Origin: Candidatus Aminicenantes bacterium
GTDB lineage: Bacteria > Acidobacteriota > Aminicenantia > Aminicenantales > UBA4085
Length of the DNA: 64,000 nt
Assembly (NCBI GenBank): GCA_963729855.1
Contig: CAVSPT010000005.1
Span: 439,661-503,660, forward strand
Reading direction: 5' to 3'
The notes under the pieces were generated by a model that had not been told where the DNA came from, made no database searches, and saw nothing but the letters and a program-made list of their open reading frames with translations. A program made the translations under genes and the position numbers. Every line of letters starts with the position of its first letter. Within the stretch, counting starts at the first letter, position 1. Shown here piece after piece: positions 6,620 to 56,325 of the stretch.

Positions 6620-6774
6620 GATGACCTCCGGATGATGGGATTCGAACGAAAGAGCATGATGACATATTCGAGGCGTTATTGGAATGGACCGCGCTTTCCA
6701 CGGCGCCCCGAGTCTCTCCAAAGGAACGAAACGCCCCCTTGTCTAAGTTATAATAGAGGTCTATGGAGAAGCCC

Positions 6775-7593
6775 ATGAGACGAATCGCTGTGTTTTTTCT
6801 CGTTCTGTTGACCGTCTTCCTGACCAGCTGCGGTCCCATCGAGCTGGCCAGCCTCTGGAGAAAGACCGACGTGACCATCGACGGCCGGGCCGAAGATTGG
6901 CAGGGCGCCTTGTACTCCATCGAAGACAAGCCGGTCTTCGTCGGCGTGCGAAACGACGCGGACAACATCTTCATCTGCCTCCAGGTCGCCGATCCGCGGA
7001 CCTTGTCGCCGATCATGCGCAGCGGATTCGTCACCTGGTTCGATCCCTCGGGCGGAAACGGCCGCGTCCTGGGGATCAAATTCCCGATCGGCATGACGAT
7101 CGAGCCGGGCGAGGTCAATCCCGAGGGCCCGCGTGACCGCGGCGGGTCCGGGCTCCCCCCGGTCATGAACCGCGACCTGGTCGAAATCCTGGGGCCGGAA
7201 AAGGACTCCGTCCAGCGCCTGAAAAAGGACGAGCTCAAGGGAATCGAAGTGGCCCTGGAAAGCAGCAACGGCTTTTTCGTCTACGAGCTCAAGATCCCCA
7301 TGGTCAAAAGCCCGGACACCCCGTTCGCCGTCGGCGCCGCCCCCGGAAGGACGATCGGCATCACCTTCGAAACGCTCGCGGCGGACCGGAACAGGCCGGG
7401 AGGCGGCGGAGACATGGCGCCCGCCGGCGGCGGCATGGGAGGCTATGGCGGCCGCGGGGGCATGGGCGGAATGGGCGGCGGCTACGGCGGTCGGGGAGGC
7501 CGGGGCGGCCGGGGCGGCGGGGATTACGGCGGCAAGAATTCCGAGCCTCTCAAGCTGAAGCTCAAGGTCAGCCTGGCCAAACAGCCTTCCTGA
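6775..7593 (+). CDS. Lipoprotein with CBM9/DOMON-like N-domain and Gly/Tyr/Arg/Met-rich low-complexity C-terminal tail (paralog 1)
   Basis: Signal peptide with lipobox 'LTSC'. GGAG 6 nt upstream of ATG 6775 (alternative ATG at 6763). The tail 'GGMGGYGGRGGMGGMGGGYGGRGGRGGRGGGDYGG' ends in 'LKLKLKVSLAKQPS'. Confidence 0.7.
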   Translation: MRRIAVFFLVLLTVFLTSCGPIELASLWRKTDVTIDGRAEDWQGALYSIEDKPVFVGVRNDADNIFICLQVADPRTLSPIMRSGFVTWFDPSGGNGRVLGIKFPIGMTIEPGEVNPEGPRDRGGSGLPPVMNRDLVEILGPEKDSVQRLKKDELKGIEVALESSNGFFVYELKIPMVKSPDTPFAVGAAPGRTIGITFETLAADRNRPGGGGDMAPAGGGMGGYGGRGGMGGMGGGYGGRGGRGGRGGGDYGGKNSEPLKLKLKVSLAKQPS

Positions 7594-7619: not shown

Positions 7620-8402
7620 ATGAAGCGCGCGTTCGTCATCGTCTCGGCCGCAGTCCTGACGCTCCTGTCCGCCGCCTGCGGCCCGGTCGACATTCAGAGC
7701 CGCTGGCGGACGTCCGAGATCAAGATCGACGGCCGGGCGGACGACTGGGCGGGCTCCCTGCGACGGATCGAACGCTCGCCGGTCTCGGTCGGAGTCGCCA
7801 ACGACGATCGATATGTCTATATCTGCCTTCAGGTCGAGGATCCGCGGGTCGTCGCCCCGCTCCTGCGCCGGGGGCTTGTCGTCTGGTTCGATCCGGCCGG
7901 CGGTCAGGACCGCGTCCTGGGCCTGAAATTTCCGATCGGACTGCGCCGGGACGACGGCCGGGACCGGACCGACGCGACGGGCGGCCGCGCGGCCGGGCAC
8001 GGGCCGCGGATCGACCAGGAGGACGTCGAGATCCTCGGCCCGGGGCGGGACGAATCCGTGATGCTGAAGAAGGACGATCTTAAAGGCATCGAGCTGGCCC
8101 AGGAAAACGACAACGGCCTGTTCGTCTATGAGATCAAAATCCCGCTGGCCAAAAGCGGGGACGCCCCTTACGCGGTTGGGAGCACCCCCGGGCGGTCGCT
8201 GGGGGTCGGCTTCGAGCCGTCCGCCGACGCCCTCCGGCGCGGGATGCGGGGAATTTCCGGGGGCTATGGTCCCGGCTACGGCGGCCGCGGCGGAATGATG
8301 GGCCCCGGCGGCATGATGGGCCGGGGCATGGGCCGCGGCTACGACGGAGGCGGCGAGCTCAAGATCTGGATGAAGGTCGCCCTGGCTCAACCTGCCCGTT
8401 GA
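7620..8402 (+). CDS. Lipoprotein paralog 2 (about 50% identical to 6775..7593) with GGYG/RGG-like tail
   Basis: Signal peptide with lipobox 'LSAAC'. Shares the same 'IDGRA(E/D)DW...YICLQVEDPR...WFDPAGG...LGLKFPIG' core and the conserved C-terminal 'LKIWMKVALAQPAR'. Confidence 0.7.
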   Translation: MKRAFVIVSAAVLTLLSAACGPVDIQSRWRTSEIKIDGRADDWAGSLRRIERSPVSVGVANDDRYVYICLQVEDPRVVAPLLRRGLVVWFDPAGGQDRVLGLKFPIGLRRDDGRDRTDATGGRAAGHGPRIDQEDVEILGPGRDESVMLKKDDLKGIELAQENDNGLFVYEIKIPLAKSGDAPYAVGSTPGRSLGVGFEPSADALRRGMRGISGGYGPGYGGRGGMMGPGGMMGRGMGRGYDGGGELKIWMKVALAQPAR

Positions 8403-10815
8403 TTTCCGCGGGCGGTTTTTTCCTCCTCCGAAATTTCCGGACCAGCAGGACCAGCGTAAGAAGCGGCCCGTAGAAGGCCGTGGCCGCGGCGGCGAAGCCG
8501 ATGTTTCGGCCCTTGACGATCTCCATCCCCCAGCCGAACTGGTCCTCGCTGACCAGGTAGGTCCAAGTCGAGGAAGGCCCTTTCAATCGCTCCAGGTCGA
8601 GCGGCGAGACGTCCTCTTTACGGGCGAGCGCGGCCATCTCGGCGGCGACCGCCTCGCCGATCCGGCCTTCCAATTCCAGGAATTCGGCGGTCGCCGCTTT
8701 TCGGAATTCGTCGATCGGCGTTTTCCCGCCCAGGCTGACCAGATGAATGCTTTCCCGGGTGTCCTGGATCCAGGCCAAATGGTCGGACCAAAAGCGGTCC
8801 AGATAATGGAGGGTCGCCCTCCGCTCCCAATCCGCCAGGCGGCCGGCCCCGAAGCGCCTCACGGCCTCGGCAAAGAGCCCGGGTTCCCGTTCGGCGAAGA
8901 GGCCCGGCGGCGGGCCGCCGTCCGCGCCCGTCAAGATCTCGTCGCGCTTCGTTTGAATCAGTCCCCTCTGCAGCTCGATGAGCGATGAGTATTTATAGAG
9001 CGAGCGGCGGATGTCGAAGTTCTGGCCCTCGATGATCCGCTGGGCGTGCTCGATCTCGCGCTGGAGATGGCCGGCGGGAACGGCGTCCGCTCCCGGGCCC
9101 GGGCGGTGCCGGCGGAGAAGCATCCCGGTCAAACCGTAGCGCTCGAAAAGATCGTCCTCCAGGCTGATGAAAAAGCGCGTCGAGCCCGGATCGCCCTGGC
9201 GTCCGGCGCGCCCGCGCAGCTGCCGGTCGATGCGCAGACTCTCGTGCCGGTTGGTGCCGATTACATAGAGTCCGCCCAGGGACAAGGCCCGTTCCCGCTC
9301 GCCTTCGTCCGCTCCGCCCAGCTTGATGTCCGTGCCCCGCCCGGCCATGTTGGTGGAGATCGTGACCGCGCCGGGCCGCCCGGCCTCGGCGACGATTGCG
9401 GCTTCGAGCCCGTCGTTGCGGGCGTTCAGGATCTGAACGACGACGCCGGCGGCCCGCAGGTCCGCCGCCAGCTCCTCAGACTCCCTGACGCTGGCCGTAC
9501 CGACCAGGATGGGCCGCCCCCCGGCATGGACGCCGGTGATCTCCCGGAACAAAGCCCTGCGCTTGGCCGGACGGCTGGTGAAGACCTCGTCCGGAAGGTC
9601 GCGGCGCGCAGTGGGCCTATGCGGCGGGACGATCGTCGTTTCCAGGCCGTAGAATTCCTTGAATTCCTGGGCCGCCGAGCGGGCCGTGGCCGTCATGCCG
9701 CAGAGCTCCGGATAAAGGCAGAAGAAATGCTGCAGGGTGATCGAACCCAGGATGCGGCCCTCGGTCTTCCGGGTCAGCCCCTCCTTGGCCTCCACGGCGG
9801 CCTGCAGGCCGTCCGGCCAATGGCGCTTGTCCACGACCCGGCCGGTGAATTCGTCGACGATCTCGATCCGCCCGCGGCGGACGATATAGTCGATGTCGCG
9901 GCGCAGGAGGGCCTCGGCGTGCAGGGCGCAATACACCGCCTCGAGCAGGCCCAGGTTCTCCGCGGCGTAAAGATCGCGGACGCCGAGAAACTCTTCGGTC
10001 CTGTCCGCGCCGGCCTCGGTCAGGAAGACGTTGCGGTGTTCATCGTCGGTTTCGTAGTCGCGGGCCGGAGCCAGGTCCCCGGCCAGCGCGGCCATCCGGC
10101 GGGCGTCCCAAGCGGCGCGGTCCTCGGCCCCGGAAATGACCAGGGGGATGCGGGCCTCGTCGACGAGGATCGAATCGGCCTCGTCGACCAAGGCGAAATG
10201 GAAAGGACGGTGGACGAGCGAGGCGGGATCGTCGGCGATCCGGTCGCGCAAGAAATCGAAGCCCGCCTCCTTGGCCGTGGCATAGGTCACGTCGGCCCGA
10301 TAGGCCACGCGCTTTTCGGCCGGGGCCATTCCTTCCTGAACGCAGCCGACGCTGAGGCCGAGGCCCTCGAAAACCGGCCCCATCCAGCGGGCGTCTCGGC
10401 GGGCCAGGTAATCATTGAAGGTCAGGACGTGAGCGCCCCGGCCGGCCAGGGCGTGAAGGGAGGCCGGGAAGACGGCGGCCAGGGTTTTGCCCTCGCCGGT
10501 CGGCAATTCGGCGACGCGGCGGCGGGCCATGGCCAAGGCGGCGATCATCTGGACGTCGAAGGGATCGAGCCGCAGGGCCCGGCGGGCGGCCTCGCGGACC
10601 AGGGCGAAAACTTCGATCTCCCAATCGGGCGCGCGCGGTGAGGCGCCGTCCGCGCCGCGCATGTCCGCCCCGAGCGATCGGGCCCGTTCGCGGATTTCGG
10701 AGTCGGAGAGATCCGCCCGATCGCGCCGCTTGATCTCGTCGACCATGGCGGCGTATCCCCGAAGATCGTTTTCGACGGGGTTTCCCGTCGCCCGGCGAAA
10801 GAATTTAAAAGACAT
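8359..10815 (-). CDS. secA: SecA-family preprotein translocase ATPase paralog (SecA2-like, 818 aa) with C-terminal hydrophobic helix
   Basis: Walker A 'LPTGEGKTLAAV', DEAD-like 'ALVDEADSILVDEARIPLVISG', 'ISTNMAGRGTDIKLGG'. ATG at 10815 with GGAGG upstream. C-terminus 'IGFAAAATAFYGPLLTLVLLVRKFRRRKK' replaces the usual Zn-finger tail. 44-nt convergent overlap with 7620..8402. Confidence 0.85.
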   Translation of the reverse strand: MSFKFFRRATGNPVENDLRGYAAMVDEIKRRDRADLSDSEIRERARSLGADMRGADGASPRAPDWEIEVFALVREAARRALRLDPFDVQMIAALAMARRRVAELPTGEGKTLAAVFPASLHALAGRGAHVLTFNDYLARRDARWMGPVFEGLGLSVGCVQEGMAPAEKRVAYRADVTYATAKEAGFDFLRDRIADDPASLVHRPFHFALVDEADSILVDEARIPLVISGAEDRAAWDARRMAALAGDLAPARDYETDDEHRNVFLTEAGADRTEEFLGVRDLYAAENLGLLEAVYCALHAEALLRRDIDYIVRRGRIEIVDEFTGRVVDKRHWPDGLQAAVEAKEGLTRKTEGRILGSITLQHFFCLYPELCGMTATARSAAQEFKEFYGLETTIVPPHRPTARRDLPDEVFTSRPAKRRALFREITGVHAGGRPILVGTASVRESEELAADLRAAGVVVQILNARNDGLEAAIVAEAGRPGAVTISTNMAGRGTDIKLGGADEGERERALSLGGLYVIGTNRHESLRIDRQLRGRAGRQGDPGSTRFFISLEDDLFERYGLTGMLLRRHRPGPGADAVPAGHLQREIEHAQRIIEGQNFDIRRSLYKYSSLIELQRGLIQTKRDEILTGADGGPPPGLFAEREPGLFAEAVRRFGAGRLADWERRATLHYLDRFWSDHLAWIQDTRESIHLVSLGGKTPIDEFRKAATAEFLELEGRIGEAVAAEMAALARKEDVSPLDLERLKGPSSTWTYLVSEDQFGWGMEIVKGRNIGFAAAATAFYGPLLTLVLLVRKFRRRKKPPAEINGQVEPGRPSSRS

Positions 10816-11160
10816 GATGAAGACCTCCTGGCGGGAAGGAACGAGAGGGATCGGAAAGAGGAGGTCAGGTCCGAGGGGGGGCGCGGAGGGAATGCGCGCT
10901 GCAGGCGTAAAGCCCAGGCCGGGCGGATGGAGCGGCCATGGCTGTCCGTATCGGGCCGGCGCCGATGAGAAAAGACAGGGACAGCAACAGAGGCCCGATC
11001 AGCAGAGGGAAAAACACCGCCAGCGGGATGAAGGCCAGGACAAAGAAGCCCCAGCCCGCAAGCGCCGGCCGGCGAAATTCGAGGACCATCGGTCGTCCGT
11101 TCATGATCACGCGGCTCGAGGAGAAGATAGGTTCCCGGCCCGTTGAAGTCAACCCGCCGT

Positions 11161-47878: not shown

Positions 47879-48212
47879 GGCGCGTCTCCTTCATGATATC
47901 GTTCAGGGAAGCCGTGATCGTCTCCCACTCCGCGGACAATTGCCTGAAGATCCGCTGTCCTTCGGCGGACAGGCGATAGAAGCGCTTGGGCCTCTTGTCC
48001 TCGTCCCGCCATTCGCTGACCAGCAGCCCCTGGCTTTCCAGCCGCCGCAGGAGCGGATACAGCGTCCCTTCATCGACGACCATTCCCATTTCGGCCAGGG
48101 CCTTGCGCAGGGTGTAGCCGTACTGTTCACTCCGAAGCTCGGCCAGGACCGCCAGCGGGACGCACCCGCGGCGAAGCTCGAGGCGTAGGTTTTCGAACTG
48201 ATCGTTGGTCAT
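47865..48212 (-). CDS. PadR-family transcriptional regulator
   Basis: Winged HTH 'CVPLAVLAELRSEQYGYTLRKALAEMGMVVDEGTLYPLLRRLESQGLL'. Confidence 0.85.
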   Translation of the reverse strand: MTNDQFENLRLELRRGCVPLAVLAELRSEQYGYTLRKALAEMGMVVDEGTLYPLLRRLESQGLLVSEWRDEDKRPKRFYRLSAEGQRIFRQLSAEWETITASLNDIMKETRHGSR

Positions 48213-48230
48213 GGCGGCGGCCTTTCCTTT

Positions 48231-48276
48231 TATACAGTGTCACGTATAGTGTATGTTACACAGTATAGACTGTCAA
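48231..48276. repeat. Cluster of short direct/inverted repeats (TATACAGTGT ... GTATAGTGTAT ... ACACAGTATAGACTGTC) immediately upstream of padR
   Basis: Read directly. AT-rich. Candidate PadR operator and boundary of the low-GC island. Confidence 0.35.
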
Positions 48277-48368
48277 GTCTTTTTTTCGATCCCCATCATC
48301 TCGAATAGCCGGGCGCGCGTTCGCTCCTGCGCTGCGAGAAATACGCCGAGCGGCAGCAAAAAAACCAT

Positions 48369-48396
48369 TTGACAATATCGCGCACTGTGTTATATT
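48369..48396 (+). promoter_or_regulatory. Strong sigma70-like promoter (TTGACA-16-TATATT) for gdhA
   Basis: Read directly. Followed by a roughly 190-nt leader before ATG 48590. Confidence 0.5.
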
Positions 48397-48523
48397 TTCG
48401 AGAAAATTGTGAATGGCTTTGTTAAGTTATACAGATGAAGCGAGAAGATTTCTCTCCGGGGAGAAATGACCGAGGGGCCGGAACCTAAAAAGTGGCGGGG
48501 ATGAAAGAAAGCAGGGCCCCTGA

Positions 48524-49942
<1,419 letters not shown>

Positions 49943-49970
49943 TTCATCAAGCGCGATCCCGTCGCAAAAA

Positions 49971-50002
49971 GGGTGCCCGTCGCGAGACGGGCACCCTTTT
50001 TC
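49971..50002 (+). terminator. Rho-independent terminator after gdhA
   Basis: gggtgcccgtc-gcga-gacgggcaccc perfect 11-bp stem followed by tttttc. An upstream A-run makes it potentially bidirectional. Confidence 0.75.
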
Positions 50003-50106
50003 ATTTCAGAATCGGTCTTCGCTTCATCATTGAGAAAGCACGCCGCTTCATACTCCGACGGCCGGCTCGGTCGGATGGCCGGCAGGCCCTGACCCGGTTC
50101 AGGCCC

Positions 50107-50136
50107 TTGACCACGGGCCGGAGCGGGAGCTAATAT
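50107..50136 (+). promoter_or_regulatory. Sigma70-like promoter candidate (TTGACC-18-TAATAT) for comDE-like genes
   Basis: Read directly. Confidence 0.3.
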
Positions 50137-50222
50137 TCTATTCTAAGATGACAGCGATGCCGAGGTTAAGGGCCGGTTCCTCATAGAGGGCAGAAAACCA
50201 AATTCATAGAGGCCGTTGGGTG

Positions 50223-50762
50223 ATGATTAGCGCCAGATCGGTTTTGGACGAACTGAAGGCTTGCCATGTGACGTTCTGTGTCGGTTTGGCGGAAACGGCA
50301 TTGGCCGCTCTGGCCGCCCTTCTCGAGAACGATCAGTCGGTGCGGTTCGTTCCCGTGACCCGGGAAGGGGAAGCATTTGCTCTGGCTTCCGGATTGTGGA
50401 TCGGCGGACAGAACGCGGTCATCTTGGTGCAAAATACAGGATTGCTGGAGAGCGGAGATGCGCTCCGCGGAACGGCTCAACGCATGCGGGTCCCGGTCCT
50501 TTGCCTGATCGCGTATCGCGGCCACTCGCATTTGCTCGGGCAAAAAAAGCATAACGGGTCTGAGCCGCGGAATCCCGACGAGTTCAGCCGTCCCGACTTG
50601 GATTCGGCGGCTCTCGTCACGGAGCCCACATTGAATGCCTGGGGCATTCCCTTTGAATTCCTGGACTCCGATGCCGATCTCCCGAAAATATCACGAGCTT
50701 TCGACCGCGCCCAAAGGGAATCTCGGCCGGTCGCCCTCCTGGTCACGAACACGATGGTTTAA
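50223..50762 (+). CDS. Sulfopyruvate/phosphonopyruvate decarboxylase alpha-subunit-like (TPP enzyme N-terminal pyrimidine-binding half)
   Basis: About 180 aa: 'HVTFCVGLAETALAALAALLENDQSVRFVPVTREGEAFALASGLWIGGQNAVILVQNTG' fits a TPP enzyme N-terminal domain. Partnered immediately with the beta half. Confidence 0.65.
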   Translation: MISARSVLDELKACHVTFCVGLAETALAALAALLENDQSVRFVPVTREGEAFALASGLWIGGQNAVILVQNTGLLESGDALRGTAQRMRVPVLCLIAYRGHSHLLGQKKHNGSEPRNPDEFSRPDLDSAALVTEPTLNAWGIPFEFLDSDADLPKISRAFDRAQRESRPVALLVTNTMV

Positions 50763-50780
50763 TGATTCCTGGCGGAGACG

Positions 50781-51371
50781 ATGCTAACCAAGGAACAGCT
50801 GCTTAAGCCCCTGGCCCAGCTCCGAAGCACGGCCGTTGTCGTGACCTGCATGAGCGTAACGCGCCCCTGGGGACGCTATTCGTCGAGCGAGCTGGATTTT
50901 GCCTCGGCTGACAGCGCCATGGGTCATACGGCCGATCTGGCTCTGGGGATCGCTCTGGCCCAGCCGCAGCGCAAGGTCATCTGCTTAAATGGCGATGGAA
51001 GCATGTTGATGACCTTGGGAACGCTGGCCACGGTCGTCGCCGCGCGAGCCACGAACTTCGCCCTCTTCATCGTCCAGAATGATTCTTACGAGCTGACCGG
51101 ACATCAGCCGATTCCGGCGGCGGGGCGCATTGATTTTGCCCGGCTGGCGCGAGGCGCGGGTTTCGAACACGTCTATGATTTTGAAAATGCGGATGATTAT
51201 GAAAGGCGATTGCCGGCCGTTCTTGCGGAGGAAGGACCGGTGTTTGCGGCGGTTCGAGTCGAAAAAGGCGCGGAAGGCCCCATCAGCCGAAGCGCAAAGG
51301 AACCGTCTCGGTACCTTCAAGTCTCGCTCGCTGAATCAGCCCATCGTCTCAGGAAGATGTTGATATCGTAG
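50781..51371 (+). CDS. Sulfopyruvate/phosphonopyruvate decarboxylase beta-subunit-like (TPP-binding C-terminal half)
   Basis: 'ICLNGDGSMLM' GDG-x24-N thiamine-diphosphate motif. GGAG ribosome-binding site. Gene starts 19 nt after the alpha stop. Confidence 0.65.
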   Translation: MLTKEQLLKPLAQLRSTAVVVTCMSVTRPWGRYSSSELDFASADSAMGHTADLALGIALAQPQRKVICLNGDGSMLMTLGTLATVVAARATNFALFIVQNDSYELTGHQPIPAAGRIDFARLARGAGFEHVYDFENADDYERRLPAVLAEEGPVFAAVRVEKGAEGPISRSAKEPSRYLQVSLAESAHRLRKMLIS

Positions 51372-51509
51372 CCAAGCCGGCGGACCGCCCCCGCTCATCG
51401 CGCCGCCCGCCGTATGAGGTTCAAATCCTGCGGCCGAAATTATCGAAAACGATCGAAAGCCGAAAAGACCAGATCAATCATCGGGCCCAGGTCAAATCCC
51501 GGCTCCAAG

Positions 51510-51539
51510 TTGACGGATTTTTGGATTTTCCCATATAAT
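51510..51539 (+). promoter_or_regulatory. Sigma70-like promoter (TTGACG-18-TATAAT) upstream of the Cys-rich response regulator
   Basis: Read directly. Perfect -10 hexamer. Confidence 0.5.
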
Positions 51540-51660
51540 GGACAGCCGGAATGAAGATCTACTGAATACGGTGGGGCATTCCGGGGGGATTTCTTATGTT
51601 GCGCGGAGAGAGCATATTCGATAAACAAAGGAAAGCAGGGAGATCGACGTCCATTCCATA

Positions 51661-52371
51661 ATGCCGTCGGAGCCAATCATCATGGAGAAAAAGATAGGAT
51701 CCTTTATCCAGGTCTATTGTCCGGAAATCATGGACATGATCAACCCGGGAGAATGGACGGATTGCCCTTATTATCGAGGCCAGAAGCTCGACATGTCGAA
51801 TACCGAGGAGGCGTTGAAGCAGATCTTCCGCTGCCATGTCCAATGCGACTGCAAGATTCAATATCAGTATTACGAGGAGGGGAAGCTGGTGAAGAAGGTT
51901 CTCGATTCCGTGGAGGACCAGGAAAGCCTCCGCCGGATCCTTCTTCTGGTGAGCAAACCGACCGAGAAGCCGAATAAAAAAACGAAAATCCTGATCGTTG
52001 ACGACGACGCGGATTTCCTCGAAATGCACTCCGTTGTCCTGAAAAACAAGGGATACGAAGTCATCACGGCCCCGAGTGCAAAAAAATGCGAGCAGGCCCT
52101 GGAGAAAGGCCGGCCCGACCTCGTGATCCTGGACGTCATGATGGAGCAGTTCGACGCCGGATTTGAACTGAGCAAGAAGATCAAGAAGAAGTATGACGGC
52201 CTGCCGGTGATGCTCCTCACGTCCATCGGGCAACAAACAGGGCTGGACTTCTCCTCCAACGCCGAGGTCTTAAGAACGACCGGCGCCGACGCTCTTCTCG
52301 ACAAGCCGGTCAGTCCCGAGGTGTTCATCGCCGAAATTGAGAGGTTGACCGCGCCCATGAAGAAGCGGTAA
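51661..52371 (+). CDS. Response regulator with N-terminal Cys-rich domain and C-terminal receiver (REC) domain
   Basis: C-terminal 'KILIVDDDADFLEMH...DLVILDVMM...KPV' REC with phospho-acceptor Asp. N-terminal about 90 aa with C20, C35, C58, H59, C62, C64 ('YCPE','DCPYY','RCHVQCDC'). Alternative ATG at 51682 has the better ribosome-binding site. Confidence 0.7.
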   Translation: MPSEPIIMEKKIGSFIQVYCPEIMDMINPGEWTDCPYYRGQKLDMSNTEEALKQIFRCHVQCDCKIQYQYYEEGKLVKKVLDSVEDQESLRRILLLVSKPTEKPNKKTKILIVDDDADFLEMHSVVLKNKGYEVITAPSAKKCEQALEKGRPDLVILDVMMEQFDAGFELSKKIKKKYDGLPVMLLTSIGQQTGLDFSSNAEVLRTTGADALLDKPVSPEVFIAEIERLTAPMKKR

Positions 52372-52387
52372 GAGACCCGCGGCTTCC

Positions 52388-54475
52388 ATGGACATCCTCA
52401 GCATCTCCAACGCCAAGTGCCGCAAGTGCTACCGGTGCGTACGGGAGTGCCCGACCAATGCCCTGAAAATCGACCAGGGGGTGGTCAAGAGAATCTGGAG
52501 CCGCTGCATTCTCTGCGGGCTCTGCTACCGGCACTGCCCCCACGCGGCCGTGAACGCCCATACCGGAATCAAGCGCGTCCTCGATCTGCTCGAGTCGGGG
52601 CAGAAAGTCGTCGCCTGCCTGGACCCCACTTTTCCGGCGGTCTTGGACAGGGGCACGCCGGGCCAGCTTGTGACCGCGTTGAAAAAACTCGGTTTTCACG
52701 AAGTCTGGGAGGCCGCGGTCGGGGGCGACTTGGTGGCCGAACCCTACCGTTCCTGGCTCGCCCAAAATAGGGAATCTAGCTGGATTTCTTCATTCTGCCC
52801 GTCGCTCGTCTTTTACATTCAAAAATTCGCCCCCTCTCTGAGCAGCCAGCTCGTGCCGATCGTTTCTCCGATGATTGCCTGCGGCCGAGCGGTTAAACAG
52901 CTCTTGGGTGCCGACACGAAAGTGGTTTTTATCGGTCCGTGCATCTCTCGAATCTGGGAGCGCATGGACCGGAGCGGAAGGGAAGCCATCGATTATGTAT
53001 TGGTCTATCGGGACATCACCAACACTCTCAGGGCGAGAGGAATCGACCGCGAAGAACAAGAACCGTCAGAATTTGACGGGCCCCGGAGCAGCCTGGGAAG
53101 GGTCCTGAGCTTTTCGGGGGGGATGAGCAAGTGCGCCGGGTTCGAGCAGGACCTCCTGAATCTGGACTATGTGGTTGAGGCCGGAGCCCCAGAAGCCATG
53201 CGGGCCTTGAAGCAGCTCCAGGAAGGAAAGATCCGCGCGCGGTTTCTCGACTTGCTGTTGTGCCGTGGCTGCATCAACGGTCCCGTAACGGACATGCAAA
53301 TCTCGGGTCCCAGTCGAAAGCAGATTGTCGTGGATTTCATTAAAGCCCAGGATCTGGTCGAGCCGGCGAAAAAAAAGGAAGGCCTCGGGGAGCCCTCTCA
53401 TTTGAATCTCACACGGAGCTTTCGACCCCATGATGCGTCCCTGCCGGATCCCACGGACGCGGAGGTCGAGGCCGTTCTGGCTCAACTCGGGAAATCCTAC
53501 CCCGACCAAAACCTGGACTGCGGGGCCTGCGGCTACAGCTCCTGCCGGGAGAAGGCCAAGGCCATCGTCCTGGGATTGGCTGAGATGGAAATGTGCCACC
53601 ATTTTCTTTTGGAACGCCTCCAGAGCCTCTATTCGCAGCTGGAAAAGTCTCACCGCCAGCTCAAGAGCTCCCATGAGCAATTGGAGGGGGCCCAACGGCA
53701 GTTGATCCAGACGGAGAAAATGGCCTCCCTCGGACAGTTGGCGGCGGGCGTGGCCCATGAGCTGAACAACCCCATCGGCACGATCATGATGTTCAGCCGG
53801 ATGATCCAGAAGGAAATGGCCCAGGATCAAAAATGGCAGAAGGATATCACCATCGTCGTCCAGGAAGCGGACCGGGCGGCTAAGATCATCAAGGACCTGC
53901 TGAGCTTCGCCAGGGAAACGAAGGTCAAGCCAGGGCAGGTGAGCATCAATCCGGTCATCCAAGAAACCCTATCGCTTCTTGTCAAGCAATCTCTCTTTCA
54001 CAATATCGAAGTGGTTGTCCTCTTGGACCCGACGCTGCCGACGACGTTTGCCGATCCGGACCTCCTGAAGCAGGTATTTTTCAACATCATCCTGAACGGC
54101 GCCCAGGCTATGGAAGGGAAAGGGACGTTGACCATCCAAACTCAGAACATCGATAACGGCAGGACCATCGAAATCCGGATCCAAGACACCGGCAAGGGAA
54201 TCCCCGAGAAACACATCCCCAAGCTCTTCGACCCGTTCTTCACGACCAAGGAGAAGGGAACGGGGCTGGGCCTGGCCCTTGTTTACAGCATCGTTTCCAA
54301 ACACAAGGGATCGATCGCCGTAGAAAGCGAGCTGGAGAAAGGCGCCACGTTCCTCATCCGGCTGCCCATCCTGAGCCAGGAAGACTGGCTGAAGCGTGAA
54401 GGCCAGGTCGAAGACTTAGGGACCGGGCTCGAAGGAAAATACAATGAAAGCCCAAGCAAAGATCTTATTGGTTGA
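52388..54475 (+). CDS. Histidine kinase with N-terminal [FeFe]-hydrogenase-like (HydS-type sensory) domain: 2x[4Fe-4S] ferredoxin + H-domain-like + Cx2Cx4Cx16C + HisKA + HATPase_c
   Basis: 'CRKCYRCVRECP', 'CILCGLCYRHCP'. H-cluster motif analogues 'SSFCPS' (TSCCP), 'GPCISRIWE' (MPCxxKxxE), 'LLLCRGCINGP' (MACxGGCxxG). 'CGACGYSSC-x16-C'. H-box 'AHELNNPIG'. HATPase 'DTGKGIPEKH...GTGLGLALV'. Confidence 0.8.
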   Translation: MDILSISNAKCRKCYRCVRECPTNALKIDQGVVKRIWSRCILCGLCYRHCPHAAVNAHTGIKRVLDLLESGQKVVACLDPTFPAVLDRGTPGQLVTALKKLGFHEVWEAAVGGDLVAEPYRSWLAQNRESSWISSFCPSLVFYIQKFAPSLSSQLVPIVSPMIACGRAVKQLLGADTKVVFIGPCISRIWERMDRSGREAIDYVLVYRDITNTLRARGIDREEQEPSEFDGPRSSLGRVLSFSGGMSKCAGFEQDLLNLDYVVEAGAPEAMRALKQLQEGKIRARFLDLLLCRGCINGPVTDMQISGPSRKQIVVDFIKAQDLVEPAKKKEGLGEPSHLNLTRSFRPHDASLPDPTDAEVEAVLAQLGKSYPDQNLDCGACGYSSCREKAKAIVLGLAEMEMCHHFLLERLQSLYSQLEKSHRQLKSSHEQLEGAQRQLIQTEKMASLGQLAAGVAHELNNPIGTIMMFSRMIQKEMAQDQKWQKDITIVVQEADRAAKIIKDLLSFARETKVKPGQVSINPVIQETLSLLVKQSLFHNIEVVVLLDPTLPTTFADPDLLKQVFFNIILNGAQAMEGKGTLTIQTQNIDNGRTIEIRIQDTGKGIPEKHIPKLFDPFFTTKEKGTGLGLALVYSIVSKHKGSIAVESELEKGATFLIRLPILSQEDWLKREGQVEDLGTGLEGKYNESPSKDLIG

Positions 54476-54845
54476 TGACGACCCCGATTTTCTGGAGATG
54501 CACAAGGCCGTTCTCCAGAGCCGGGGCTATGAGGTTTTCACCGCCGCGAGCGCCCAGGAAGGCCTGGGACGCGTCCGGGCGGAGATGCCGGACCTGATCA
54601 TCCTGGACCTCATGATGGAGAAGCATGACGCGGGATTTTCCTTCAGCAAGGCGGTCAAGACCGACCCGCTGTTCAGGACGATCCCCATCCTCATGGTGAC
54701 GTCGGTGGCCGAGGCCACCGGCTATCGCTTTTCGCTCGAGGAAGACGGGTATTGGATGAAAACGGACGATTTCCTGAATAAGCCCGTTCCGCCTGAAGTC
54801 CTCCTGGAAGCCGTCGATAAACTCCTGCAGAAGAAAAAAGAATGA
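54444..54845 (+). CDS. Stand-alone receiver-domain response regulator (CheY-like)
   Basis: 'ILLVDDDPDFLEMH...DLIILDLMM...KPV'. Overlaps the kinase stop. Confidence 0.8.
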   Translation: MKAQAKILLVDDDPDFLEMHKAVLQSRGYEVFTAASAQEGLGRVRAEMPDLIILDLMMEKHDAGFSFSKAVKTDPLFRTIPILMVTSVAEATGYRFSLEEDGYWMKTDDFLNKPVPPEVLLEAVDKLLQKKKE

Positions 54846-54846
54846 A

Positions 54847-56325
54847 ATGAATACACAAGGCCGAATTCTCGTCGTCGACGATGAAATGGGAATCCGCGAA
54901 GGCTGCCGGCGCGTCCTGGCGGAGGAAGGGTACGACATCGACCTGGCCGGAGACGGAAATGCCGGCCTGCAGAGGGCCCGGGAGAAATCCTATGACCTCG
55001 TCCTGGTCGACCTCATGATGCCGGGCATCGGCGGGCTGGACATGATCAATAAGATCCACGAGATCGATCCCGAGATCATCATGGTCGTGATCACGGGATT
55101 TGCCACCATCGAAACGGCGGTCGAGGCGACGAAGAGGGGGGCCTACGATTACCTTCCGAAACCCTTCACTCCGGAAACGCTGGCCGTCCTGGTCAAGAGG
55201 GGGCTCGAGAAGCGGGAGCTCCGATTGGAGGCCCAGAGGCTTCAGCAGGAACGGGAGCAGAGGCTCCTGGAGCTGGCCGGTGAAAAGAGCCGCCTCCGGA
55301 GCATCATCGGCTGCATGGCCGACGGCGTTCTGGTCACGAACCTCGAGGGTCACCTGGTCCTCTGGAACGCCTCCGCCGTGAACATGCTGAAACTCCGGGG
55401 AACGGACGAACCCGGGAAACCTCCGGGCCATTACATCAAGAATCAGCCTTTGATCGAATCCCTGGCAAAAATCATGAACTCGAAGGACGAAAGTGTCTCG
55501 ATGATCAGCCAGGAGATCCCCTCGGATGACGCGAAATCGGTCCTGATGGCCCAGATGGCCCCCGTCCGGGACGACCAGGGGAAGCTTCTCGGAGCCGTGA
55601 CGGTCCTGAGGGACATCACGAAGCTCAAGGAGATCGATAAGATCAAATCCCAGTTCGTCTCCATGGTGGCGCATGAGCTTCGCTCGCCCTTGGCGGCCAT
55701 CGAAGGCTGGCTGGGCCTCCTGCTGTCCGGCGAAGTCGAAGGGGACAAAGAACAAAAACGACAATGGCTGCGGCGGGCGAAAGAGCGGGCCCACTCTCTC
55801 CTGGCTCTCGTCCAGGACTTGCTGGAGATCAACAAGATCGAGGCCGGGAAGGTCGCCCTGAAGATGGAGTCCCTCCAGATGACCGACATCCTGGGCAAGA
55901 TCATCGACTTTCTCAAGCCCGAAGCGGACAAGAAAAATGTCTCCATCCAAATGAGATCTCCCGCGCCGATTCCGCTCCTCCGGGCCGACGTTCAGGACAT
56001 GGAAAAGCTCTTCACCAACCTGATCAGCAATGCCATCAAATACAACGTCGAGAAGGGTTCGATCACGATCGAAACGTCTTTGGATGCGAACTACGTCGGG
56101 ATTCACGTCCACGATACCGGGATCGGCATATCCCGGGACGACCTTCCGCGGATTTTCGACGATTTCTTCCGGGCCGAAAACAGCAAAACGGCTAAGATCA
56201 GCGGAACAGGACTGGGGTTGACGATCGCCAAGAAAATCGTGGACTCCCACTTCGGGCATATCGAAGTGAAGAGCGAGCCGGATAAGGGAAGCACCTTCTC
56301 CGTCTACCTGCCTTACCGGACATGA
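54847..56325 (+). CDS. Hybrid sensor: N-terminal receiver + PAS + HisKA + HATPase_c histidine kinase
   Basis: 'ILVVDDEMGIREG...DLVLVDLMMPG', PAS-like 'IGCMADGVLVTNLEGHLVLWN', 'VAHELRSPLAAI', 'GTGLGLTIAKKIV'. Confidence 0.8.
   Translation: MNTQGRILVVDDEMGIREGCRRVLAEEGYDIDLAGDGNAGLQRAREKSYDLVLVDLMMPGIGGLDMINKIHEIDPEIIMVVITGFATIETAVEATKRGAYDYLPKPFTPETLAVLVKRGLEKRELRLEAQRLQQEREQRLLELAGEKSRLRSIIGCMADGVLVTNLEGHLVLWNASAVNMLKLRGTDEPGKPPGHYIKNQPLIESLAKIMNSKDESVSMISQEIPSDDAKSVLMAQMAPVRDDQGKLLGAVTVLRDITKLKEIDKIKSQFVSMVAHELRSPLAAIEGWLGLLLSGEVEGDKEQKRQWLRRAKERAHSLLALVQDLLEINKIEAGKVALKMESLQMTDILGKIIDFLKPEADKKNVSIQMRSPAPIPLLRADVQDMEKLFTNLISNAIKYNVEKGSITIETSLDANYVGIHVHDTGIGISRDDLPRIFDDFFRAENSKTAKISGTGLGLTIAKKIVDSHFGHIEVKSEPDKGSTFSVYLPYRT

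Follow-up and report, generated by a model that had tools for sequence, protein, structure and literature searches.

Textbooks present SecA as a soluble motor that binds to the membrane and leaves it again in cycles, and the biology of SecA2 has been described almost wholly in Gram-positive pathogens. The mycobacterial type of SecA2 (TIGR04221; M. tuberculosis Rv1821, PDB 4UAQ) goes together with an essential housekeeping SecA1 and serves the export of a particular subset of proteins via SecYEG. It has no helical wing domain and no zinc-binding tail, carries a P-[ST]-S-T-W-T-Y motif and ends about 17 residues past this motif with no hydrophobic segment. Extra SecA-like ATPases are also present in Gram-negative lineages, namely the secondary SecA_DEAD proteins of Planctomycetes, Verrucomicrobia and others, which are reported to be related to the actinobacterial SecA2 clade; they miss most or all of SecA_SW and have type-I-secretion-like gene links (PMC4452313).

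The secM-secA and RAPP-like arrest peptides (ApdA, ApdP and the 'RQH' uORFs upstream of secA, secDF or yidC) are encoded by unannotated small ORFs directly upstream of a sec gene (PMC7897499, PMC10987492, PMC10951233). The peptides begin with a hydrophobic localisation signal and have a conserved R-x-P-P close to their C-terminal end, while the downstream Shine-Dalgarno (SD) sequence is hidden in a stem which would be opened by a stalled ribosome. Bacterial tail-anchored proteins, such as E. coli DjlC, Flk and SciP/TssL, have a large cytoplasmic N-terminal domain without a signal peptide and one hydrophobic segment near the C-terminus; they insert without SecYEG, and the natural and designed examples have extremely short, weakly charged exported tails with lysines on the cytoplasmic N-terminal flank (PMC6794478). 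In the PglC-type monotopic phosphoglycosyl transferases, 20–30 hydrophobic residues that predictors read as transmembrane contain a central conserved X-Pro, the free terminus is basic and the globular domain lies on the same cytoplasmic side. For PglC, experiments have established that a central X-Pro combined with a basic free terminus makes a membrane helix re-entrant (PMC6133551).

The window, i.e., the whole 64-kb stretch of DNA that was analysed, comes from an Aminicenantes bacterium and contains a gene whose product was compared with these systems:

8359..10815, minus strand: secA2-type gene with an ATG start, 818 aa, assigned by Pfam, family-model and structural comparison
8557..8580, minus strand: G746-P-S-S-T-W-T-Y753 signature, also present in M. 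tuberculosis SecA2 (PTSTWTYM) and predicted as a short beta-strand ahead of the tail

The Pfam analysis revealed the domains SecA_DEAD (3.8e-93), P-loop_SecA (5.7e-60), SecA_PP_bind (4.9e-29) and, in part, SecA_SW (2.4e-21), while the SEC-C zinc motif had no Pfam match in the 818-aa protein. The features of the SecA ATPase superfamily, DEAD-like motor motifs, a preprotein cross-linking domain and a helical scaffold, are all present. Walker A (G107-E-G-K-T), DEAD (D211-E-A-D), motif V (R493-G-T-D) and motif VI (R536-A-G-R-Q-G) were found, with residues invariant in a 69-sequence alignment. The protein scored 800.1 bits against the TIGR04221 model SecA2_Mycobac, above the equivalog cutoff of 725, and remained below the cutoffs of all canonical SecA models (PRK12904, 712.8 < 814; TIGR00963, 701.1 < 800). 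The streptococcal-type SecA2 of the SecA2-SecY2 accessory Sec system was rejected as a candidate (TIGR03714, 520.9 bits < 930), and no secY2 or asp genes were found around the gene in the window or in loci L001–L004.

M. tuberculosis SecA2 (4uaq) was the only protein aligned end to end, with residues 3–758 in one stretch (E 9e-179), whereas the alignments with canonical SecA were broken at residues 629–632, where the wing domain starts. The wing region comprises 23 residues, against 77 in C. difficile SecA2, and the AF2 model (pLDDT 77) has only two short helices (639–655) at this position. The Foldseek comparison gave a SecA fold with a TM score of 0.76 to 4uaq. Judged by these models and alignments, the protein is a mycobacterial-type SecA2 ATPase without helical wing domain or zinc tail, similar in size to its mycobacterial counterpart and collinear with it over the full length. 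The sequence-only reading had taken it for a short, SecA2-sized SecA with intact ATPase motifs and a missing zinc-binding tail, and on all three points our results agree with it; the alignment to the SecA1 and SecA2 families added the wing domain to the missing parts. The Aminicenantes protein differs from the mycobacterial one in its diderm rather than actinobacterial host, in 65 more residues past the STWTY motif, which hold a hydrophobic helix-GP-helix and a polybasic cluster, and in a candidate leader of the arrest-peptide type. It is also unlike the secondary SecA_DEAD proteins, as the scaffold domain is kept in this family and conserved neighbours of the type-I-secretion kind are absent.

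The additional C-terminal residues form a tail with the following parts:

8440..8502, minus strand: hydrophobic segment I772-V792 (IGFAAAATAFYGPLLTLVLLV, 21 aa), with an invariant N771-x-G773 before it and a conserved G783-P784 in its middle; predicted helix-break-helix
8416..8439, minus strand: polybasic cluster R793-K800 (RKFRRRKK); the family median is 5 Lys/Arg within the 10 residues past the segment
8359..8415, minus strand: non-conserved C-terminal extension P801-S818 (PPAEINGQVEPGRPSSRS, 18 residues) and stop codon, with a 44-nt overlap with the 3' end of a convergent lipoprotein gene

The segment I772-V792 holds by far the most hydrophobic 19-mer of the protein (summed Hessa-type dG +1.2 kcal/mol, with the second-best 19-mer at +8.6; Kyte-Doolittle mean 1.96) and the only strongly hydrophobic one; it lies near the C-terminus, and an N-terminal signal is absent. 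The tail is present in 70/70 complete genes from GTDB species-representative genomes and in virtually every one of the 120 best database homologs, so it is not a product of chance or of a frameshift. Its order is specific to the family (a short helix, N-x-G, 11 small or hydrophobic residues, G-P, about nine aliphatic residues and 5–8 Lys/Arg), and the tail is conserved in its sequence (N-I-G-F-A-A-x-A-A...G-P-L...polybasic) in 163/163 distinct relatives, nearly all of them Aminicenantes. Among these 163 unique tails, N and G are 100% conserved, G-P 82–83%, and an internal Pro occurs in 96%; the median uncharged run is 23 aa, followed by a median of 11 and up to 44 further residues. Similar tails were also found on SecA2-type proteins in Bacteroidota and Calditrichaeota genome bins. 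The sequence-only reading correctly described a 21-residue hydrophobic segment followed by RKFRRRKK, but the protein does not end there, as the 18 non-conserved residues come after. The possibility, raised in the same reading, of an amphipathic helix disagrees with the uniform hydrophobicity of the tail (Eisenberg <H> 0.73; hydrophobic moment 0.07–0.13, and 0.07 across the 163 unique tails).

The conserved hydrophobic, positively charged tail probably pins the protein to the inner membrane. A positive-inside stop-transfer, as had been proposed, does not fit the topology of a tail anchor, since a segment that spans the membrane behind a cytoplasmic motor of 770 aa would place 5–8 Lys/Arg in the periplasm. 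The median flank charges are −1 on the N-side and +5 on the C-side, with a median of 5 Lys/Arg in the 10 residues past the segment; the charge bias delta(C-N), +6 in the median, lies above zero in 99.4% of the tails. Given this bias and the internal Pro in 96% of tails, both tail ends are most likely cytoplasmic, and the bias together with the central Gly-Pro favours a re-entrant monotopic anchor over a classic N-in/C-out tail anchor. The tail shares with the PglC helix the conserved central X-Pro (here G-P), the polybasic free end and, as a prediction, a cytoplasmic location of both this end and the globular domain. The likeness is one of pattern, not of sequence: the Aminicenantes module lies at the C-terminus, as a mirror image, and its break is Gly-Pro, not Ser-Pro. 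In the AF2 model the helix breaks at residue 782/783, in a tail of low confidence (pLDDT 33–60). In the mechanism that we propose, the tail module would act as a permanent membrane anchor. The motor and the polybasic cluster flanking the hydrophobic stretch would both lie on the cytoplasmic face, the stretch itself would dip into the inner leaflet as a helix-break-helix, and the Lys/Arg cluster would bind anionic lipid head groups. Such anchoring would hold the motor beside SecYEG rather than let it cycle through the cytosol.

A segment of 21–23 residues could also span the inner membrane as in a classic tail-anchored protein, with the polybasic stretch and the variable extension in the periplasm. 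Its length, its uniform hydrophobicity and a summed dG of about +1.2 to +1.8 kcal/mol are compatible with a true membrane-spanning helix, transmembrane helices tolerate prolines, and the single hydrophobic segment near the C-terminus after a large N-terminal domain without signal peptide is what the SecYEG-independent tail-anchored proteins have. We nevertheless regard this topology as unlikely, because 5–8 Lys/Arg and up to 44 residues in all would have to cross against the membrane potential, and because the positive charge lies on the C-terminal flank, the reverse of the short, weakly charged C-terminal stretches of DjlC, Flk and SciP/TssL with their positive N-flank. The tail might, on the other hand, not be an anchor at all and instead lie in the signal-peptide groove or clamp of SecA2 as an auto-inhibitory intramolecular pseudo-substrate, a reversed mimic of a signal peptide. 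Canonical SecA has an auto-inhibitory C-terminal tail or linker: in B. subtilis SecA the C-terminal linker, and in E. coli SecA the tail, fills or blocks the groove for the substrate. Conservation of the Aminicenantes tail extends to sequence and not just to hydrophobicity, and the invariant N-x-G with the small-residue-rich first half (GxxxG/AxxxA-like) suggests specific packing. This possibility appears quite improbable, as AF2 leaves the tail undocked on the body, 23 uncharged residues followed by 5–8 basic ones are a typical lipid-binding design, and other SecA2-type lineages have, instead of the hydrophobic tail, short basic amphipathic helices that likewise look membrane-binding.

Directly upstream of secA2 and in the same orientation, at a gap of about 40–80 nt across the loci, lies a small ORF (uORF), which is the only neighbour conserved across the family; no protein-coding neighbour is common to more than 22/68 secA2 loci. 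The leader in the window contains:

10865..11104, minus strand: upstream small ORF of 79 aa if ATG 11104 is used (exact start uncertain), candidate monitoring substrate or arrest peptide
10874..10885, minus strand: R-A-P-P arrest-type motif, codons CGC GCC CCC CCT, followed by two more residues and the stop codon; CCC at 10879..10877 is the codon expected in the P-site
10859..10866, minus strand: anti-SD GACCUCCU, which shares bases with the stop codon of the uORF and lies at +13 to +20 nt, counted from the first base of the codon expected in the P-site
10822..10829, minus strand: SD sequence of secA2, AGGAGGUC, which pairs with the anti-SD in an 8-bp stem without mismatch
11124..11152, minus strand: TTGACT-17-TATCTT, a match to the sigma-70-like promoter consensus and no more than that, a short way ahead of the uORF

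The peptide in the window has about 33 hydrophobic residues with central prolines, a spacer and the end SLRAPPRT-stop, and uORF peptides matched no Pfam family. A uORF with a hydrophobic N-part and a C-terminal R-[S/G/A]-P-P was found in 65/68 loci, against a background of 2.9% for other long ORFs treated by the same procedure; the distant tail-bearing SecA2 genes L085–L087 are without it. None of the 61 unique peptides departs from R and P-P, even though codons and the remaining peptide sequence vary, and in 58 of them the motif sits 1–3 residues before the stop. The hydrophobicity is high in nearly all (Kyte-Doolittle 19-mer mean 2.4–3.1; median uncharged run 30 aa). The Aminicenantes uORF resembles the RAPP-like peptides in its position, its hydrophobic N-terminal signal, its R-x-P-P and the sequestered SD, with stalling here predicted. 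It differs in the SecA2-type gene downstream, the dominance of RSPP, the unusually long (about 30 aa) and proline-interrupted hydrophobic region, the shorter spacer and the use of the Pro-Pro codons as anti-SD in many loci. The text and supplements of PMC10987492, as far as accessible, do not mention Aminicenantes or Acidobacteriota groups.

The SD of secA2 (AGGAGG, 8 nt upstream of the start) has its pairing partner within the footprint of the stalled ribosome in 49/59 unique loci, against 24% of dinucleotide shuffles; since the leader is pyrimidine-rich, the SD is paired somewhere in 70% of the shuffles too, and only the position of the partner is distinctive. The anti-SD either overlaps the uORF stop codon or consists of the Pro-Pro codons themselves. 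The small upstream gene thus appears, from the motif and the position of the hairpin, to control secA2 synthesis in a SecM-like feedback design. The uORF would encode a membrane-targeted peptide ending in R-[A/S/G]-P-P, and a ribosome stalled at this motif would cover or unwind the anti-SD and leave the SD free, until membrane insertion of the nascent peptide pulls the arrest open and the hairpin closes again. In favour of stalling, RAPP and RGPP stall ribosomes, and RSPP and RDPP are arrest-permissive (PMC10951233, PMC12992588). Besides the lack of a uORF at L085–L087, two observations have to be set against the arrest. The commonest variant of this family is RSPP (39 peptides, with RGPP in 16 and RAPP in 6), which was only 'partially permissive' in the ApdA/ApdP contexts (PMC12992588). 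Moreover, the spacer from the end of the hydrophobic core to the P-site Pro is 25 residues long in the median (15–46), below the more than 30 between localisation signal and arrest point that Fujiwara et al. used as a criterion, so part of the hydrophobic region may remain in the ribosome tunnel at arrest; a spacer above 30 results only when the signal is taken to be the N-terminal half of the 30-aa hydrophobic run.

The explanation as a whole, a SecA2 motor with a re-entrant tail anchor and secM-secA-like uORF feedback, is in our view fairly probable. Were the protein instead the only, housekeeping SecA of Aminicenantes, merely resembling actinobacterial SecA2, the leader would be no surprise, as arrest peptides are typical there (secM-secA and the secA-upstream groups of Fujiwara et al.). 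The gene is present in 222 species-representative genomes, and a second, canonical secA was absent from the 64 kb of the window as well as from 85 related loci of about 1 Mb in total, which is a small fraction of any genome. This assignment is improbable in the light of the failed canonical and passed SecA2 cutoffs and of two derived characters that M. tuberculosis SecA2 has as well, namely the missing wing domain and the STWTY motif. The same protein type also occurs in a Bacteroidota genome bin; to our knowledge, Bacteroidota always have a long canonical SecA of their own, and canonical SecA is regarded as universal in bacteria. Next to the gene, an ORF at 7620..8402 (plus strand) converges on secA2 with a real 44-nt overlap. 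Together with the ORF at 6763..7593 (plus strand) it makes up a pair of paralogs of 49% identity, both with a lipobox-like signal peptide and a C-terminal region rich in Gly. The sequence-only reading had noted the overlap and the two Gly-rich lipoprotein paralogs. Its further proposal, that SecA2 is a dedicated exporter of these two lipoproteins, could draw on M. smegmatis, in which the known SecA2-dependent substrates include lipoproteins, and on the convergent adjacency in the window and loci L002, L003 and L005. The idea is very hard to maintain, since the adjacency is limited to these four closest relatives (SecA2 identity about 78% or more) among 68 loci, the lipoprotein family has 424 members in Aminicenantes and Thermoanaerobaculaceae that are mostly encoded elsewhere, and the genes are convergent, not co-transcribed.

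The literature search found no description of a membrane-anchored SecA2 tail or of an R-x-P-P leader on such a gene. If the anchor is confirmed, a built-in hydrophobic and polybasic anchor in a large Gram-negative SecA2 family would make permanent tethering an evolved solution and a natural test case for how far SecA function needs release from the membrane. An R-x-P-P leader with an SD-sequestering hairpin would extend arrest-peptide feedback to an accessory SecA. The anchor and arrest predictions are addressable in E. coli or B. subtilis despite the uncultured host. A more tentative, though possible, wider view is that uncultivated Gram-negative phyla (Aminicenantes/Acidobacteriota, Bacteroidota, Calditrichaeota) commonly have SecA2 in a membrane-resident form and that the soluble mycobacterial SecA2 is a derived tail-less offshoot; the Aminicenantes motor would then be a dedicated insertion or export device. 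An R-x-P-P arrest peptide, handled by the pathway as one of its substrates, would adjust the level of the motor, as the first monitoring-substrate circuit for an accessory SecA. That the candidate monitoring peptide is a small membrane protein points to membrane-protein insertion as a role of the Aminicenantes SecA2.

The secA2 ORF starts 8 nt downstream of the Shine-Dalgarno sequence AGGAGG. Pfam recognised SecA_DEAD, SecA_PP_bind, P-loop_SecA and, in two pieces, SecA_SW, and it found no SEC-C zinc motif in the 818-aa protein. The four ATPase motifs below are invariant in an alignment of 69 family sequences.

Gene and ATPase motifs of SecA2 (window coordinates for the gene, residue numbers for the protein).
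8359..10815, minus strand: secA2 ORF, ATG start, 818 aa
Residues 107-111: Walker A, GEGKT
Residues 211-214: DEAD
Residues 493-496: motif V, RGTD
Residues 536-541: motif VI, RAGRQG

The protein passed the NCBI curated model TIGR04221, the mycobacterial SecA2 equivalog (800 bits, cutoff 725), while the canonical SecA models and the streptococcal, listerial and Bacillus SecA2 models all scored below their own cutoffs. M. tuberculosis SecA2 (4uaq) was the sole solved structure aligning in one piece (residues 3-758, E 9e-179); the alignments with canonical SecA break off where the long scaffold helix ends (residues 629-632), and 23 residues stand where C. difficile SecA2 has 77. The AlphaFold2 model (69 homologs, pLDDT 77, pTM 0.74) has only two short helices (639-655) at the wing-domain position, so the helical wing domain appears to be essentially missing, as in M. 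tuberculosis SecA2. A Foldseek search with this model returned SecA structures exclusively, the top target-normalised TM-score belonging to 4uaq (0.76, 42% identity). Moreover, the PTSTWTYM of M. tuberculosis SecA2 is matched by P-S-S-T-W-T-Y directly before the tail. The sequence-only reading had described intact ATPase motifs, a missing zinc-binding tail and a likeness to mycobacterial SecA2, all of which agree with these results; the comparison with SecA families that it proposed adds the wing domain to the zinc tail as a part that is missing.

The nearest database proteins are 60-93% identical and belong to Aminicenantes/Aminicenantales metagenome bins; those that bear a name are already labelled 'accessory Sec system translocase SecA2'. 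The exact sequence had no match in the protein database, the best being 93% identical and partial. Both window lipoproteins have exact or near-exact matches there (P0272, P0285) on a contig of 1,380,231 bp, and secA2 was probably given another start, or skipped, in the gene calling on that contig. In seven loci from long-read-derived genome bins (L008, L020, L028, L031, L033, L039 and L076), secA2 is seemingly split across reading frames, most likely through assembly indel errors rather than pseudogenisation.

Indirect arguments suggest that SecA2 is an accessory paralog. A search with its protein sequence (tblastn) found no second secA in the 64-kb window or in 85 fetched loci, which cover a small part of any genome. 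That SecA2 serves as the sole SecA of Aminicenantes is nevertheless improbable, given that it passes TIGR04221 and none of the canonical SecA models and that it has derived characters in common with M. tuberculosis SecA2. SecA is regarded as universal in bacteria, and Bacteroidota, in which the same type of protein occurs, have a canonical SecA of their own; both points likewise speak against a sole SecA.

The C-terminus reads, in order, ...GPSSTWTYLVSEDQFGWGMEIVKGRN-IGFAAAATAFYGPLLTLVLLV-RKFRRRKK-PPAEINGQVEPGRPSSRS. In hydrophobicity, the 21 residues I772-V792 stand far above every other 19-mer in the protein (Kyte-Doolittle mean 1.96), with a summed Hessa-type dG of +1.2 kcal/mol vs +8.6 for the next-best 19-mer. 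The 21-residue segment and the RKFRRRKK behind it were therefore described correctly from sequence alone, except that 26 residues, not 8, follow the segment. The same tail is present in all of the best 120 homologs with a complete C-terminus. When GTDB was scanned, one genome per species, with a profile built from the final 150 residues, 222 encoding stretches came up; nearly all of the top 80 are from Aminicenantes, and the tail is kept in 70/70 complete genes among them. Its composition was summarised over 163 distinct tails.

Composition of 163 distinct SecA2 tails.
N-x-G at tail start: N and G invariant
Eight positions after N-x-G: mostly Gly/Ala
G-P, twelve residues past N: 82-83% conserved
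Residues past G-P: about 9 Leu/Ile/Val/Phe
Internal proline: 96%
Uncharged run: median 23 residues
Eisenberg mean hydrophobicity <H>: 0.73
Hydrophobic moment: 0.07 (0.07-0.13)
Ten residues past the run: median 5 Lys/Arg, no acidic residues
Net charge of N-flank (15 residues): median -1
Net charge of C-flank (15 residues): median +5
Charge difference, C minus N: positive in 99.4%

An amphipathic helix, which would have spoken against a membrane segment, is ruled out by a hydrophobic moment of 0.07-0.13 at <H> 0.73.

The sequence-only reading had termed the basic cluster a 'positive-inside stop-transfer' and had spoken of a 'tail-anchored' SecA, two views that are mutually exclusive here. The ATPase must be cytoplasmic, and therefore a single span would place the Lys/Arg cluster plus as many as 44 more residues outside, where the exported cluster would break the positive-inside rule. 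Known bacterial tail anchors differ from this: what they export is extremely short, and their lysines sit on the cytoplasmic flank (PMC6794478). The closer likeness is with PglC, in which a central helix-breaking X-Pro and a basic free end form an experimentally established re-entrant helix-break-helix in one leaflet (PMC6133551). The SecA2 tail also has a central X-Pro, a conserved basic free end and the globular domain on the same side, and it is seemingly a C-terminal mirror image of the PglC element. AlphaFold2 breaks the tail helix at 782/783 (helices 774-781 and 783-797) with low confidence; as the model is good for the motor and low for 747-818, it was taken for the tail only as a weak indication that the helix breaks. 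We prefer the reading of a monotopic anchor with both ends cytoplasmic, whose hydrophobic stretch would dip into one leaflet as a re-entrant helix-break-helix. A true membrane-spanning helix, with the exported charges that it entails, and a cytosolic pseudo-signal-peptide are less likely alternatives to the monotopic anchor. What we infer here for SecA2 includes its membrane association, its topology and its substrates.

An exhaustive profile search with the C-terminal region against 1.84 billion cluster representatives yielded 412 proteins at E <= 1e-10. Among the best 150 of these, 96 have a hydrophobic segment past (S/A)TWTY, which is no prevalence estimate, as the query profile held a tail and the ranking favours tails; 92 of the 96 carry at least 3 Lys/Arg past the segment. 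Five of the best 150 have mycobacterial-type ends, and many others have short basic amphipathic ends (e.g., ...GDFMKGLKEGLGCFKGLKRAL), which may be alternative membrane-binding elements in other SecA2-type lineages. Such basic amphipathic-looking ends past (S/A)TWTY (e.g., GDFMKGLKEGLGCFKGLKRAL and AVLNQLIRGVVKRLGRIFK) were seen in the database proteins P0211, P0219, P0236, P0247, P0151 and P0258. Both organism-named representatives, one from a Bacteroidota bin and one from a Calditrichaeota bin, are tail-bearing SecA2 proteins. The neighbour-joining tree, whose sole outgroup was E. coli SecA, has a star-like, unresolved base that fits both gain and loss of the tail. Nothing relevant came up in searches of the literature, whether on a SecA or SecA2 with a transmembrane tail or tail anchor or on SecA2 in the phyla concerned. 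SecA2-type motors that end in a conserved hydrophobic and polybasic stretch, probably an anchor, are widespread in uncultured Gram-negative lineages, a real finding whose interest goes beyond what ordinary annotation suggests.

Upstream of secA2, an ORF of 61-106 codons on the same strand ends approximately 40-80 nt 5' of the gene and has R-[S/G/A]-P-P among its last residues in 65 of the 68 loci with enough upstream DNA, against a background of 2.9% by the same procedure in 872 other long ORFs of the same loci. R, P and P are invariant in 61 distinct peptides (RSPP 39, RGPP 16, RAPP 6), while the other residues and the choice of codons vary freely, and the motif lies 1-3 residues ahead of the stop in 58 of them; one locus has RDPP. 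The N-terminal part is strongly hydrophobic (Kyte-Doolittle 19-mer 2.4-3.1), and the peptide has no Pfam family. From its conservation, this small ORF appears to be a partner of secA2.

Features of the secA2 leader in the window.
11152..11124, minus strand: sigma-70-like promoter (sequence match)
10865..11104, minus strand: upstream ORF, encoding ...FFVLAFIPLAVFFPLLIGPLLLSLSFLIGAG...SLRAPPRT
10885..10874, minus strand: RAPP codons of the upstream ORF
10879..10877, minus strand: first Pro of RAPP, expected P-site codon
10866..10859, minus strand: anti-Shine-Dalgarno GACCUCCU, overlapping the stop codon of the upstream ORF
10829..10822, minus strand: secA2 Shine-Dalgarno AGGAGGUC, in a perfect 8-bp stem with the anti-Shine-Dalgarno

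RAPP and RGPP are well established as motifs that arrest ribosomes on monitoring substrates, which are encoded upstream of secA, secDF and yidC (PMC7897499, PMC10951233, PMC10987492); RSPP and RDPP, which proteomes strongly avoid, are arrest-permissive (the same sources and PMC12992588). In Aminicenantes, secA2 would be coupled to an upstream ORF that newly joins the RAPP-like arrest peptides, and ribosomes would be expected to stall at its R-x-P-P. The available portions of the text and supplements of the arrest-peptide survey PMC10987492 make no mention of Aminicenantes, Acidobacteriota groups or SecA2. An R-x-P-P ORF is absent from three distant loci that encode tail-bearing SecA2 (L085-L087), and therefore the leader is specific to the Aminicenantes clade. 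One of them has a very hydrophobic 92-aa ORF ahead of SecA2 (L086, 9693-9971) that lacks R-x-P-P and ends in ...HRYKLYKPALCN; this ORF may be another type of leader, or else a small membrane partner. The hydrophobic stretch of the upstream ORF (e.g., window 10960-11060, minus strand; loci L001-L083) spans about 30 residues, nearly always broken by a central Pro-rich turn (FPPLL, LPLPF, FFPLL) reminiscent of the helix-Gly-Pro-helix in the SecA2 tail.

When the first Pro codon occupies the P-site, the anti-Shine-Dalgarno starts at +13 and would lie inside the mRNA channel of the stalled ribosome or at its entrance. Two layouts occur across the loci: the anti-Shine-Dalgarno is at the stop codon of the upstream ORF (+12 to +20), or the Ser/Ala-Pro-Pro codons themselves form it (CCCUCCUU, -3 to +6). 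A partner of the Shine-Dalgarno falls within the stalled-ribosome footprint in 49 of 59 distinct loci vs 24% of dinucleotide shuffles. Pairing at any position is less distinctive (85% vs 70% of shuffles), being common in shuffles too because the leader is pyrimidine-rich, and the folding energy is no better than that of shuffles (z = -0.48). The position of the partner is the only distinctive feature of the leader fold. No Rfam family matched the leader. The arrangement follows the secM-secA and mifM-yidC2 logic, in which arrest exposes the Shine-Dalgarno, as summarised in PMC10987492. Arrest on the upstream ORF would expose the secA2 Shine-Dalgarno, and once the nascent peptide meets the membrane machinery, the arrest would be released and the hairpin would close.

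Loci of relatives with 68-82% identity have a common gene order (AddAB-like genes, aldo-keto reductase, small ORF, secA2), which is not kept at more distant loci. The window also contains, as claimed, two Gly-rich lipoprotein paralogs (6763..7593 and 7620..8402, plus strand; 49% identical, with lipobox-type signal peptides), the second convergent with secA2 and overlapping it by 44 nt. Their proposed role as dedicated SecA2 substrates has no comparative support, since homologs adjoin secA2 only in the window, L002, L003 and L005, the widest-shared protein family within 5 kb of secA2 reaches at most 22 of 68 non-redundant loci (clustering of all ORFs), and 424 members of the unannotated lipoprotein family are detectable across Aminicenantes and Thermoanaerobaculaceae. 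This role was rejected on synteny.

The AlphaFold2 model of the lipoprotein (pLDDT 79) is a beta-sandwich with a disordered Gly/Met/Arg-rich linker (209-257) before a high-confidence last strand (264-270). In the PDB it most resembles CBM9 carbohydrate-binding modules and the gamma subunits of ethylbenzene dehydrogenase and nitrite oxidoreductase (E about 4e-6, TM 0.3-0.45). A terminator-like hairpin and T-run of the second lipoprotein gene (8392-8425, plus strand) lie within the tail-coding part of secA2 on the opposite strand, where the T-run is complementary to the polybasic cluster's Lys codons. Elsewhere in the window, GC content drops to 0.53-0.58 at 48001-56000 vs 0.63-0.68 in the remainder, and a strongly positive AT skew extends from about 36 to 48 kb; this may reflect an island of foreign DNA or a run of genes in a different orientation.
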